From assembly GCA_964576435.1 (NCBI GenBank), contig CAZNUP010000001.1, positions 162,345 to 226,344 on the forward strand: a stretch of DNA of 64,000 bases, written 5' to 3'. The stretch comes from an uncultured Gammaproteobacteria bacterium. GTDB taxonomy: Bacteria; Patescibacteriota; Microgenomatia; JAMCZE01. How positions within the stretch are numbered: the first letter of the stretch is position 1; each line of letters opens with the position of its first letter. The notes below the pieces were generated by a model. It saw only the letters and a program-made list of their open reading frames with translations. It was not told where the DNA came from and searched no databases. Both the position numbers and the translations under genes were made by a program. Of this stretch, positions 2,964 through 36,305 are shown piece after piece.

Positions 2964-4664
2964 ATGAAGACGATAAGTCCTAAACTACAAATGAATAGAT
3001 ACCTTACATACGCACGAAAATCCAGTGAGACCGAAGATAGACAGATTGCATCTATTCCAGATCAACTTAAAGAAATTCACTTATTAAGAACTCGCTTAGG
3101 TATACCTGAACCAGTCTCGTTTTCTGAGTCAAGGAGTGCAAAAATCCCTGGCAGAAGCGAGTTTAATAAGATGGTTGACCTTATTGAAAGAGGCGGAATA
3201 AAGGGTGTCTTATGCTGGAATCTATCAAGGCTTGCTCGTAACGGCAAAGATGGCGGCGTCATTATTTGGGCTGTTAACGAACTTGGATTAGAAATTGTCA
3301 CCCCTTCAAAAACATTTACCAAAGAAGATATTTTCCTCATGTATATCGAGTTTGGTATGGCTAACCAATTCATAAATGACTTATCGAAAAATGTAAAAAG
3401 AGGATTAAAGTCAAAGGCGGAAAAAGGGTGGTTGCCGAGTGGTGCAAAAGCAGGTTATGCGAATGATAAATATGCAGAAAAAGGAAATAAAACAATATTG
3501 CCCGACCCAGACAGATTTCCACTTATTCGTAAAGCTTGGGATATGATGTTAACTGGGATTTATAGTCCACTACAAGTTCTTAGAACTTTAAACGACGATT
3601 GGGGCTATCGCACTCCAAAACACAAAAGGATTGGCGGGAAGCCGATGTCAAGAAGTCATATTTACAAAATGTTTACCGACGCTTTTTACTACGGGGAATT
3701 TGAATATCAAGGTAACTGGTATATGGGCAAACATAAACCAATGATTTCAAAAGATGAGTTTGATAGAGTTCAAGCTTATTTAGGCAATAAAGGACGTCCA
3801 AGGCCAAGAACACATGAGTTTGCATTCACTGGATTATTCAAATGTGGTGAATGTGGTGCGATGATAACGGCAGAAGAAAAGTTTCAAATAATATGTTCTC
3901 ACTGTAAATGTAAGTTTGCATCATTAAATAAAGTTAGATGTCCCCGTTGTCAAACCTTGATAACGGATATGAATAATCCTACTCGACTTCACTACACCTA
4001 CTACCATTGCACAAAACGAAAGAAAAAGTCTTGTACTCAACGAGCTATCAGAATCGAATCGTTAGAACAGCAACTCGATTCATTATTAGAAAATATTCAA
4101 ATTTCAGAAGGTTTTAAAGATTGGGCTATTAAGCATCTGAGTGAAGTAGCAGAAATTGAAACCGAAGATAGAGATTCAATCATTCAGTCCCAACAAAAAG
4201 CGTACGACGATTGTGTGAAACGAATAGATAATTTAGTTAAACTGAAAATATCATCACAAAATTCTAATAATGAATTACTTTCAGATGAAGAATTTAAAAA
4301 TCAAAAAGAATCCCTGCTCGCTGAAAAGTCTAAGTTAATGGAGAAACTTCAAGATACGGACGGACGAATAGATAAATGGCTAGAGCTAACAGAAAAGACT
4401 TTTAACTTTGCTTGTTACGCCCGTCGTTGGTTTACGGAAGGAAACATTGCAACTAAGAAACAAATATTATTAGGAATCGGTTCGAACTTTACTTTAAAAG
4501 ACGGAGTTGTGGGTGTAGACCTGGAAAAACCATTACAGTTTATAGAATTTGCCAAAAACAAAGTTGTGGAGATTTCACCAACGTTCGAACCTGAAAAAGA
4601 GGGCTATAAATCAAGCCAAATGGACTCTTTTTACTCTAAAAATCTAACTTTGCTCCTCCGCTAG
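2964..4664 (+). CDS. large serine recombinase (integrase)
   Basis: 566 aa. The N-terminal resolvase catalytic domain carries YARKSS...R...Q, followed by a recombinase domain and a Cys-rich zinc ribbon (CGECG...CSHCKC...CPRC). The stop codon at 4662-4664 overlaps the 3' end of tRNA-Asn. Confidence 0.85.
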   Translation: MKTISPKLQMNRYLTYARKSSETEDRQIASIPDQLKEIHLLRTRLGIPEPVSFSESRSAKIPGRSEFNKMVDLIERGGIKGVLCWNLSRLARNGKDGGVIIWAVNELGLEIVTPSKTFTKEDIFLMYIEFGMANQFINDLSKNVKRGLKSKAEKGWLPSGAKAGYANDKYAEKGNKTILPDPDRFPLIRKAWDMMLTGIYSPLQVLRTLNDDWGYRTPKHKRIGGKPMSRSHIYKMFTDAFYYGEFEYQGNWYMGKHKPMISKDEFDRVQAYLGNKGRPRPRTHEFAFTGLFKCGECGAMITAEEKFQIICSHCKCKFASLNKVRCPRCQTLITDMNNPTRLHYTYYHCTKRKKKSCTQRAIRIESLEQQLDSLLENIQISEGFKDWAIKHLSEVAEIETEDRDSIIQSQQKAYDDCVKRIDNLVKLKISSQNSNNELLSDEEFKNQKESLLAEKSKLMEKLQDTDGRIDKWLELTEKTFNFACYARRWFTEGNIATKKQILLGIGSNFTLKDGVVGVDLEKPLQFIEFAKNKVVEISPTFEPEKEGYKSSQMDSFYSKNLTLLLR

Positions 4665-4921
4665 GACTCGAACCTAGGACATCTTCGTTACAAGAACCCT
4701 TAAATTACTCTAAGGCTTGGACTATCTCATCTCCGATGTGACATCGGAGTCGGGTATATAGTCTCTACACATTTAGTCCGACACAAGGTCGGACACTTAG
4801 CTCGGGATTGTCCTGCTTGTGGCGGGAGTTCCCCGAATTAGCCCGATTTTCACTCATGCATTGCTGCAAGAGGCTGCCAAACTTAGACAGCGAAGCGCTC
4901 TACCAACTGAGCTACAGAGGA
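4653..4921 (-). tRNA. tRNA-Asn(GUU) interrupted by a group I intron in the anticodon loop (exons 4887..4921 and 4653..4690)
   Basis: The exons, read on the minus strand, give TCCTCTGTAGCTCAGTTGGTAGAGCGCTTCGCTGT | TAACGAAGATGTCCTAGGTTCGAGTCCTAGCGGAGGAG. This is a clean cloverleaf: 7-bp acceptor with one G-U pair, D-arm GCTC/GAGC, anticodon stem CTTCG/CGAAG, loop CUGUUAA, T-arm CTAGG-TTCGAGT-CCTAG, discriminator G. It is nearly identical to the E. coli tRNA-Asn framework. No CCA is encoded. Confidence 0.8.
4691..4886 (-). ncRNA. group I intron (~196 nt) between anticodon positions 35 and 36 of tRNA-Asn
   Basis: The 5' exon ends in U and the intron ends in G. The conserved R-like element GTAGAGACTATA and S-like element GAGATAGTCC are present, as are a P/Q-like pair (AAATCGGGC ... 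AATCCCGAGC). There is no ORF inside. Confidence 0.7.
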
Positions 4922-32137: not shown

Positions 32138-32252
32138 CTATAGGACAGATAATAAGAATTCAATTGAAAACTTATGGTCTAACTTAGCTATCTTGAAAGT
32201 ATGGTGGGGACTTTCTGTAGCGCTTTATTATTATATAGTTCCGAAATTACGG

Positions 32253-32337
32253 CGGAGGAGGCGAGATTCGAACTCGCGACATCTTGCGACGTGGCGGTTT
32301 AGTAAACCGCTGCACTAGACCACTATGCGACTCCTCC
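32253..32337 (-). tRNA. type II (Ser-like) tRNA with apparent anticodon ACU
   Basis: GGAGGAGTCGCATAGTGGTCTAGTGCAGCGGTTTACTAAACCGCCACGTCGCAAGATGTCGCGAGTTCGAATCTCGCCTCCTCCG. The anticodon stem is GCGGT/ACCGC with loop TTACTAA. The acceptor and T-arm are identical to tRNA-Ser(GGA) at 11245. Confidence 0.55.
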
Positions 32338-32352
32338 AGTTTTTTTGGCGAG

Positions 32353-32439
32353 CGGAGGAGACAGGATTCGAACCTGCGCGAGCCTTGCGGCCCAGAGATT
32401 TAGCAAACCTCCGCAATGGACCAGCTATGCGACTCCTCC
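32353..32439 (-). tRNA. tRNA-Ser(GCU), type II
   Basis: GGAGGAGTCGCATAGCTGGTCCATTGCGGAGGTTTGCTAAATCTCTGGGCCGCAAGGCTCGCGCAGGTTCGAATCCTGTCTCCTCCG. The anticodon loop is TTGCTAA. Confidence 0.75.
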
Positions 32440-34368: not shown

Positions 34369-34789
34369 GGGGATGTACGAATCGCTGGGAGAGCACTTTG
34401 AAAACTGCAAGCCGAAGATGATAGCTAGAATTCGTTAAAAACGCTATCAAAAACTTAAGTGCTGGAACACAATCCACACTGACTGCGTATCTGGAGAAAC
34501 TCCAGAAGAAAGCCGAATTGGCTTTCAACGCTAACTTCAAGGCGCAAGCCCAAGTTTTAGCTTACGCGTAAAGTCTGTTTCATAAATCCTCTCTCAGTGG
34601 GATTTTTGAGGCATTATTCAGCTGAGATGCTAACTTAAGGGTTTGGTTTTCCTTTGAGAATATAGACCAGTAACCACGCTATATTTGTCTTGTTAATTCG
34701 ATCGGGTATAGCAAGAATTAGAATTAACTACGCTTGTAGATGTTTAAGGGTCGTTCTAACCATACGGGGCTTCACCGCCCCCATCTCCA
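34369..34789 (+). ncRNA. ssrA: tmRNA (ssrA), ~421 nt, proposed tag peptide ANFKAQAQVLAYA
   Basis: It starts GGGGATG 6 nt after the smpB stop. An internal tag ORF GCT AAC TTC AAG GCG CAA GCC CAA GTT TTA GCT TAC GCG TAA lies at 34530-34571. The 3' tRNA-like end has T-arm GGGGC-TTCACC-GCCCC (34766-34781) and acceptor strand CATCTCC (34782-34788) pairing with the 5' GGGGATG, with discriminator A. No CCA is encoded. Confidence 0.65.
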
Positions 34790-36305
34790 CATGAGGGATT
34801 TTTCTTGGAGAAAGATCGCGCATTAGCTCGATCGGACGGGACAAAGTCGCTGTTCCAAAACCATTTTCTTTGTCGAACGTCAACTTGTCTTCGAAATACA
34901 TCAAAACAATAGCTCTCTTATTTTGCCAATTAGGGTTTTTCCACATATCAACAGGGTTTTCCAATGTTTGGAAAACCAAACTCGAGGCAGTTCCAAATTC
35001 TTTGTCAGAGTAGTGGCGATCTAGTCCTTGTTGCTCTTCAAGCTCTTTCTTTTGGGAAAGTTTACCCTTTAGCTCGTTCTCATAAACTCCAATAAGCTCT
35101 TCGTCTTTTGACTTGATTATTCGAGCCTTCAAAGAAGTGATTTCCGATTCAATGTCATAAATCAATGACTGATCAAGATCCCTTTTTGCCTCAAAGGAGG
35201 TTCTGTGTTGCGCCCAGACGTCTCCTAATACTGCCAACACTAGATCAGTTACTCCTTTGGCTGGCTTGGCACCTTCCATTAAGTCGAGAAGTTGATCATG
35301 CATTTTGTCTCTATGGAGAGTTTTCCAACGCATTGGGCAGCCCAGCTTCTTACAATCATATTTAGGATACTTCTGCTTGCCGTTTCTCCCAGTGCTCCAG
35401 CTCCCTGTTACAGGCCCATTGCAGAGGGAACAGCGCACAAGCCCTCTCAAGGGAAAATCATTACTGTAATCTTTGCGAACCTTAATGATCGGCTTTTTAG
35501 CAAATTTGTTAAGAACTATTGGGTAAAGACTTGGATCAACCAGGCCGTCGTGTTGGCCTTTCCCTAAAGGAATTCCCCAGGGATCATATTCAATCATGCC
35601 AAAATAAAGCGGGTTTTTAAGAATGCCCTGTATTCCATGATGAGAGATATTACTTTTGGCCCCTAGTTTGTAAAGCTCACAGTCAACAAACAGTTTAACC
35701 TCGTCCTGTGTCCGCAGCTCGCCGCTTGCAAATTTTTCAATTGCAGCCTTCCTGACTATAGCGTTGGGGCTTCCGTCTGGTTTCAGGATTTTGCCACGAA
35801 TGGGATCTTTGAAGTTCTTGAGTCCAGGAGGCATGCAGAATGGCCAAAAACCGCTCTCCAGTCGAGCTTTCATCTTTTGAATAACCTGCCTTCTATTCTT
35901 TTGTCTTTCATATTGAGAGGTTGCCGCGGCCACATTTTCGATTAATTCTCCTTCTGGACTATCCTCAAAATTAAAATTCGGACTTTCCAGCTTGGCTCCT
36001 CGCCCCACCAGCTCACTCTTTAACTGAAGATGAACTTTGACATCTCGAGCCAACCTACTCAGATCGTCAAAAATAATCACATAGTTTTCTATCTTATGGA
36101 CTTCAAGATGGGTAATTAACTTCTTCATTCCTGGCCGCTCAAAAAGCCCCCCAGAAACACCATCGTCAGGGAAAACTACCTCGACTTTGTATCCTTTTTC
36201 CCTGGCGTAGTTACGACATCTCCTTTCCTGAGATTCAAGTCCGTGGCCTTCATTGACCTGGCGATCTGAACTTACCCGACAATAAATTAAGCACTTAGTT
36301 TGCAT
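34728..36305 (-). CDS. large serine recombinase (integrase) of an ssrA-integrated island
   Basis: 525 aa. The N-terminal resolvase domain is LIYCRVSSDRQ...GLESQ...R; there is a recombinase domain, a zinc-ribbon Cys cluster (CSLCNG...CKKLGC) and a coiled-coil. The last ~20 codons overlap the 3' tRNA-like domain of ssrA. Confidence 0.85.
   Translation of the reverse strand: MQTKCLIYCRVSSDRQVNEGHGLESQERRCRNYAREKGYKVEVVFPDDGVSGGLFERPGMKKLITHLEVHKIENYVIIFDDLSRLARDVKVHLQLKSELVGRGAKLESPNFNFEDSPEGELIENVAAATSQYERQKNRRQVIQKMKARLESGFWPFCMPPGLKNFKDPIRGKILKPDGSPNAIVRKAAIEKFASGELRTQDEVKLFVDCELYKLGAKSNISHHGIQGILKNPLYFGMIEYDPWGIPLGKGQHDGLVDPSLYPIVLNKFAKKPIIKVRKDYSNDFPLRGLVRCSLCNGPVTGSWSTGRNGKQKYPKYDCKKLGCPMRWKTLHRDKMHDQLLDLMEGAKPAKGVTDLVLAVLGDVWAQHRTSFEAKRDLDQSLIYDIESEITSLKARIIKSKDEELIGVYENELKGKLSQKKELEEQQGLDRHYSDKEFGTASSLVFQTLENPVDMWKNPNWQNKRAIVLMYFEDKLTFDKENGFGTATLSRPIELMRDLSPRKIPHVEMGAVKPRMVRTTLKHLQA

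Follow-up and report, generated by a model that had tools for sequence, protein, structure and literature searches.

A compact group I intron between anticodon nucleotides 35 and 36 of a tRNA-Asn(GUU) gene

What does a transfer RNA (tRNA) gene encode when its anticodon is cut in two by nearly 200 nt of additional sequence, and is that sequence an intron? The question is raised by a locus in a 64-kb stretch of contig CAZNUP010000001.1 (the whole analysed stretch is called the window hereafter), where the minus strand from 4921 to 4653 reads as a 5′ exon, a 196-nt insert and a 3′ exon, the exons together specifying a mature tRNA-Asn(GUU) of 73 nt. An earlier sequence-only reading of this DNA had described a tRNA-Asn(GUU) gene split by a group I intron of some 196 nt between anticodon nucleotides 35 and 36. 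We confirm that a group I intron lies at 4691..4886 on the minus strand, with scores far above chance, and we hold it very probable (about 0.93) that the gene is functional and that the intron is a compact ribozyme without an open reading frame (ORF).

Exons, splice sites and identity of the insert

The 5′ exon (4887..4921, minus strand; 35 nt, TCCTCTGTAGCTCAGTTGGTAGAGCGCTTCGCTGT) comprises tRNA positions 1 to 35 and ends in GCUGU, in which the final U (U35, at 4887) is U-1 relative to the 5′ splice site. The insert runs from 4886 to 4691, beginning with CTAAGTTTGGCAGC and ending with GGGTTCTTG; its terminal G at 4691 is the omega-G, immediately 5′ of the first bases of the 3′ exon, UAACGAAG. 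The 3′ exon (4653..4690, minus strand; 38 nt, TAACGAAGATGTCCTAGGTTCGAGTCCTAGCGGAGGAG) comprises positions 36 to 73, and CCA is not encoded at its end. When joined in silico, the two exons give a canonical cloverleaf with the anticodon loop CUGUUAA. The acceptor stem and the remaining tRNA body fit the tRNA-Asn framework, with the E. coli tRNA as comparator, which also speaks against the tRNA-Thr assignment considered below.

The boundaries were examined in several ways. ARAGORN with intron detection (-i) returned tRNA-Asn(gtt) as c[4652,4921] i(36,196), with a 196-nt intron, and this was the sole split tRNA within the window, whereas the default run of the same program called seven tRNAs in the window, the split tRNA-Asn not being among them. 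No second tRNA-Asn gene was found in the 64 kb with ARAGORN -i. Upon scoring of the candidate boundaries across the anticodon loop, position 35/36 alone combined a U-1, a terminal G, U33 and a purine at position 37, and the U•G pair conserved in the Rfam model aligns with U35.

The insert itself was identified by a scan of the whole window against Rfam at gathering threshold. Intron_gpI (RF00028) matched 4698-4896 on the minus strand with 64.7 bits (E 3.9e-14; gathering score 50), over the full length of the model (positions 1-253), and no other group I intron was detected in the window. The intron thus possesses the conserved catalytic core, P3 to P8 with P7, at a score above the gathering threshold. 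Its minimum-energy fold is more stable than expected from composition (z = -3.16), none of 200 shuffled sequences folding as well. There is no homing endonuclease gene within the intron: the longest stop-free run in any frame is 48 codons. In these respects, the sequence-only reading held. The exons, the intron-aware tRNA search and the boundary scoring agree on a tRNA-Asn(GUU) split at 35/36; the U that ends the 5′ exon and the G that ends the intron, on which that reading had relied, are both in place; the insert is a group I intron; and it is compact and free of an endonuclease ORF.

Fold of the intron and its relatives

Helices were placed by hand from the window sequence and compared with the Rfam alignment; all coordinates below are on the minus strand. 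P1 (4873..4891) pairs the exon end GCUGU and the first intron base, C1 (4886-4891), with the guide GGCAGC (4873-4878), and includes the U-1•G wobble. The adjoining P10 is formed by UUG (4878-4880) and the first bases of the 3′ exon, UAA, in three pairs (U•G, A-U, A-U). The complete guide, 5′-UUUGGCAGC-3′, is thereby complementary to the ligated junction GCUGUUAA (GCUGU/UAA) over 8 bp, namely five P1 exon pairs and the three of P10. The predicted complementarity of the guide to the exon end GCUGU is, therefore, present, and beside P1 all helices from P2 to P9 can be drawn.

P2 is a hairpin (4853..4872) with a GCAA tetraloop of the GNRA type. P3 joins UCGGG (4842..4846) to CCCGA (4750-4754), and P4 joins UCGGGG (4831-4836) to UCCCGA (4802-4807) and encloses P5 (4811-4827). 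The P6 and P6a hairpin (4769..4801; GUCCGAC with GUCGGAC) is supported by helices 7-9 of the alignment and by the minimum-energy fold. P7 consists of six Watson-Crick pairs between GACUAU (4758..4763), the R element, and AUAGUC (4720-4725), the S element; in group I introns, this core helix houses the guanosine-binding site. P8 (4731..4749) is a hairpin of 8 bp, and P9 (4698..4715) a hairpin with a GUAA tetraloop, again of the GNRA type, followed by a 7-nt tail, GUUCUUG, of which the final base is the omega-G. The junction between P7 and the 3′ strand of P3 (J7/3) is AUA only, with no P7.1/P7.2 hairpin upon inspection. When folded without constraints, the minimum-energy structure reproduces P2, P3, P4, P5, P6a, P8 and P9. 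As for the core elements named in the sequence-only reading, R, S and Q were correctly recognised, but the element called P-like, AAATCGGGC, is really the 5′ strand of P3; the true P element is the UCGGGG of P4, which pairs with Q (UCCCGA).

Relatives were sought by scanning one genome per GTDB species for the pattern GTAGAGACTATA-N15-45-AGATAGTCC. The 120 loci obtained are a lower bound, and exon boundaries were re-derived at every locus before it was assigned to a host tRNA. At least 20 loci proved to be tRNA-Asn split at 35/36 and at least seven tRNA-Asp split at 35/36; at least three fell in Met/Ile2 tRNAs at 33/34 and at least two in tRNA-Leu(UAA) at 34/35. Single or doubtful calls accounted for at least seven more, the boundary was ambiguous in at least 15, and at least 12 were without a split-tRNA call. 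The closest introns among the matches listed are those in the tRNA-Asn genes of a Daviesbacteria metagenome-assembled genome (MAG; locus L094, 78% identity) and a Gottesmanbacteria MAG (L042, 76%).

The P7/J8-7 signature was also frequent in tRNA-Arg(UCU) at 34/35 (at least 54 among the 120 matches listed). These loci are labelled mostly as Gammaproteobacteria (Woeseiaceae, Thiodiazotropha, Chromatiales) and Saprospiraceae, and many of their introns measure 630-700 nt and probably contain an endonuclease gene.

For a structure-based alignment we used 26 introns of the 35/36 type, 25 of them from other genomes. Invariant across the 26 are J3/4-P4, the 3′ strand of P4 with P6 (AUCCCGAGCUAA), J6/7-P7 and J8/7-P7′, while the peripheral stems are variable. 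Standard pairs occupy 89.2% of the alignment cells, against 34-47% in controls in which the 3′ partners were slid by 1-3 columns, and covariation scores 0.400, compared with 0.06-0.11 in the slid controls; having been drawn from the window sequence, the structure has some advantage over its slid versions, yet the margin is large. Both sides have changed in 37 of the 61 pairs, and none of 500 shuffles reached the observed values of pairing or covariation. All 26 introns have the U•G pair and the complete set of six P7 pairs. P4 is paired in 100% of cases and nearly invariant, P3 in 99% with three covarying pairs, and P9 in 95% with six; all eight pairs of P2 covary, and P5 covaries too. The helices are, in other words, backed by compensatory changes in homologues.

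In a neighbour-joining tree of the 26 introns, the branches radiate like a star and introns from Asn and Asp hosts are in part interspersed; the resolution is too poor for a claim of host switching. As a weaker reading, one compact intron lineage of ~190 nt might have moved among tRNA-Asn, tRNA-Asp and perhaps tRNA-Tyr by way of the CUGU target that these hosts have in common.

Published relatives, host and alternative readings

Classical tRNA introns of subgroup IC3 are found in tRNA-Leu(UAA) of cyanobacteria (34/35), in tRNA-fMet (33/34), in tRNA-Ile(CAU) of Azoarcus and in tRNA-Arg(CCU) (36/37). The window intron is of the same ribozyme class and near in size, with a simple P1-P9 layout lacking P5abc, and it shares with them the J6/7-P7 motif GUGUAGAGACUA. 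In the Azoarcus intron, L2 and L9 are likewise GNRA tetraloops. The window intron differs in host, tRNA-Asn, which is none of fMet, Leu(UAA), Ile(CAU) and Arg(CCU), and in site, 35/36, which is none of 33/34, 34/35 and 36/37; its identity with the classical introns amounts to 49-52% over the longer sequence. P2 and P9 are capped by GNRA loops and P7.1/P7.2 is missing, a layout that looks like that of IC3; by inspection, the lack of P7.1/P7.2 (J7/3 = AUA) is atypical of classical IA introns.

The sequence-only reading had taken the host tRNA and the position within the anticodon for unusual and had named no example in tRNA-Asn; this novelty is not borne out, published cases existing in two works. 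A survey of ~80,000 bacterial genomes by Williams (2020, bioRxiv, 10.1101/2020.01.27.920355) raised the number of settings of tRNA group I introns from the four classical ones to 21, in a survey without experiments; one of these settings is cited as “Asn.4Ug” by Nakagawa et al. (mSystems 2026, PMC13011429; preprint July 2025). This setting matches the window locus: in a tRNA-Asn, the intron follows nucleotide four of the anticodon loop, and both U-1 and omega-G are present. Nakagawa et al. analysed 95 complete Patescibacteria genomes and reported group I introns at 35/36 in 15 tRNA-Asn(GUU) and three tRNA-Asp(GUC) genes. Precise self-splicing in vitro was obtained for the tRNA-Asn of GCA_016700035.1 and the tRNA-Asp of GCA_001029755.1, and mutants with the omega-G changed to C stalled at exon ligation. 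Across 4,934 complete genomes, the same authors counted 28 introns at 35/36, 19 of them from Patescibacteria and the others from Cyanobacteriota, Nitrospirota, Bacillota_A, Bipolaricaulota and Pseudomonadota; 25 of the 28 were placed in subgroup IA, and the tRNA introns of Patescibacteria were all non-IC (PMC13011429).

The window locus has the host tRNA-Asn(GUU), the 35/36 site, the U-1/omega-G rule and the lack of an endonuclease gene in common with the introns of PMC13011429, and probably also the host phylum, and it is homologous to published members, with which it has long invariant blocks in common. Among the supplementary sequences of PMC13011429 that entered the comparison, the nearest are Microgenomatia tRNA-Asp introns at 35/36, with 66-67% identity. 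The in vitro spliced tRNA-Asp intron of GCA_001029755.1 is also 196 nt long and was recovered in our pattern scan (L084). In most of the published tRNA-Asn introns compared (205-312 nt), an additional hairpin stands between P7 and the 3′ strand of P3, where the window intron has AUA only; this comparison covered 11 of the 15, the other four being longer and carrying homing endonuclease genes. Within the published set, the short AUA-type junction is shared with the Microgenomatia tRNA-Asp introns, and the compact type is represented by tRNA-Asp, tRNA-Tyr and one 205-nt tRNA-Asn intron from Paceibacteria. The window locus is, then, a further ordinary member of a described and experimentally validated family, and its arrangement is not new.

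A Microgenomatia-type patescibacterium is the most likely host, because its RpoD (64-73% identical) and DnaG (38-47%) resemble proteins encoded beside split tRNAs in the Microgenomates group (loci of Woesebacteria, Daviesbacteria, Gottesmanbacteria and “Patescibacteria group”), and because several of these loci, like the window, have the tRNA in a neighbourhood with rpoD and dnaG. Matches to the window came only from Logan metagenome contigs, which are identical across the tRNA.

The 35/36 intron also occurs on MAG contigs labelled “uncultured Gammaproteobacteria” or “Pseudomonadales” (L096, L102, L009, L064, L078, L081, L082, L098). The RpoD proteins of L096 and L102 are 64-71% identical to that of the window, and L102 is near-identical across the intron to a Woesebacteria locus (L119). 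The labels are probably wrong, and L096, L102 and the like are, therefore, no evidence for the intron outside Patescibacteria.

How would this RNA be processed? Both its fold and its kinship with an intron that has been spliced suggest that it splices as a group I intron. The 5′ splice site would be attacked by a guanosine from outside that occupies the pocket of P7, after which the omega-G (4691) would occupy the same pocket while the UAA of the 3′ exon is held by the adjacent guide bases in P10. Joining of the freed 3′-OH of U35 to U36 would excise the intron and leave an intact GUU anticodon.

Several points weigh against a working gene of this kind in a Microgenomatia-type host. P2 contains a U·U and P5 a C·A mismatch, both in peripheral helices; P10 is just 3 bp long and is not conserved across the aligned 35/36 introns; our view is that of 64 kb, and an uninterrupted tRNA-Asn gene may exist elsewhere in the genome. 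The assignment to a phylum, moreover, leans on MAG contigs, the labels of which appear not to be all reliable. The two mismatches and the limited view are what could be said for a dead tRNA-Asn gene with a decayed, non-splicing intron, the work being done by an uninterrupted gene elsewhere. We consider this improbable, though it is the best of the alternatives: the columns invariant in the 26 homologues are all intact in the window intron, the exons give a perfect cloverleaf, and the window has no other tRNA-Asn gene.

A second alternative involves the neighbouring gene for a large serine recombinase (566 amino acids; 2964..4664, plus strand; Pfam Resolvase, Recombinase and Zn_ribbon_recom), which is convergent with the tRNA and overlaps the 3′ acceptor strand of the latter with its final 12 nt. 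The intron, or the intron with the 3′ exon, could be cargo of the recombinase element rather than a resident of the chromosome, given that the recombinase ORF terminates within the 3′ end of the tRNA in the window and in seven other intron-bearing loci. This is more improbable still. The overlaps between recombinase and tRNA measure 12-52 nt and never extend as far as the intron, and L096 carries a homologous intron in a syntenic tRNA next to rpoD-dnaG with no detectable recombinase homologue in the ~4.4 kb downstream. As L096 documents, the intron is independent of the recombinase element; L119 yielded no recombinase match either, but with a downstream flank of ~370 nt only, it is uninformative.

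Finally, a shift of the boundaries by two bases, giving a tRNA-Thr(UGU) with the intron at 33/34, the call that ARAGORN and tFind make for many related genes (the ambiguity is seen in retrieved loci, e.g., L028, L045, L046, L049, L066 and L068, and misannotation as tRNA-Thr(UGU) is documented for related 35/36 loci in PMC13011429), is effectively excluded, since it would leave U instead of G as the last intron base, while 33/34 is outside the top-scoring boundaries and the Rfam alignment sets the conserved U•G pair at U35.

The serine recombinase gene and the surroundings of the tRNA

Having accepted a tRNA-Asn(GUU) gene with a resident intron, one may ask whether its 3′ end is a target for integration, as the sequence-only reading had maintained in calling the tRNA the attachment site of an integrative element. 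One half of that claim stands: an integrase-type gene lies at the edge of the presumed element, beside the 3′ end of the tRNA, and its reading frame ends inside the tRNA. As for the other half, the searches gave no attachment-site repeat and did not reach the far end of the presumed element. The large serine recombinase is a candidate integrase of an element extending to the left. Its gene is preceded by a HTH_36 gene (2427-2921), and DUF5659 and HTH_3/XRE-type genes are found further left, on contig L004.

Homologous recombinases are convergent to the split tRNA in several of the scanned loci, the reading frame ending inside the tRNA in at least seven. The overlap is 13-15 nt in L117, L102 and L047 and 46-52 nt in L034, L046, L068 and L077; in the latter class, the C-terminal motif DSN.EP.SY of the recombinase results from reading the T-arm of the tRNA in antisense. 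This arrangement is recurrent, and integration at or in these tRNA genes is, therefore, likely. That this particular tRNA-Asn serves as the attachment site of an integrative element is plausible. Whether a recurrent class of serine-recombinase elements targets these tRNA genes is more doubtful, and we would put it at somewhat below even odds. The targeting of tRNA genes is typical of tyrosine integrases.

Searches for the second end were negative within their scope. No second copy of the 3′ end of the tRNA (22-mer) or of the 45 nt downstream of it was present in the window at up to 3 mismatches, nor was there a significant direct repeat in nine related recombinase-bearing loci. The window thus holds no second attachment site or partial tRNA repeat; the element runs past the window start, and its far end is possibly out of view. 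Leftward extension by way of contigs encoding genes of the element yielded short contigs of the same region only. Scanning metagenomes with the adjacent DsbB gave 80 loci of 46-69% identity, none of which has a tRNA within 900 nt downstream; the synteny of DsbB and the tRNA is thus not preserved elsewhere, and the scan yielded neither an unoccupied attachment site nor an allele lacking the intron. A scan of viral contigs with the recombinase returned one match (49% identity) without an adjacent tRNA, which is uninformative on the phage-type attachment site (attP).

Two contigs from different samples, L005 (ending at 4664) and L003 (ending at 4608), overlap exactly over 57 nt, a stretch made up of the terminal 12 nt of the tRNA and the 45 nt downstream. 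In a de Bruijn assembly, an overlap of this kind would be expected at an alternative junction or at a segment present more than once, and the stretch may represent a branch point or a repeat.

Further along the window, two tRNA-Ser genes lie in tandem on the minus strand (32251-32337 and 32352-32439), one with the unusual anticodon ACU (loop UUACUAA) and the other with GCU; in all, the window has five tRNA-Ser genes (GGA, CGA, UGA, ACU and GCU). Rfam also reports a transfer-messenger RNA (tmRNA) at 34369-34792 on the plus strand (73.5 bits), 424 nt long against a model of 374 positions and with low accuracy in the middle of the alignment. It was not called by ARAGORN, tmRNA mode included, and may be a divergent or insert-bearing tmRNA.

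If it is true that a recurrent class of serine recombinases is aimed at tRNA genes, this would be a modest novelty, and the recombinase-tRNA architecture is the sole part of the locus that is possibly worth more work. The intron itself contributes an example of the compact type in a tRNA-Asn and leaves the knowledge of group I introns unchanged. Its main relevance is to annotation: where the split gene is missed, a genome seems to be without tRNA-Asn and its completeness score is lowered, a pitfall likewise raised by Nakagawa et al. (2026, PMC13011429).

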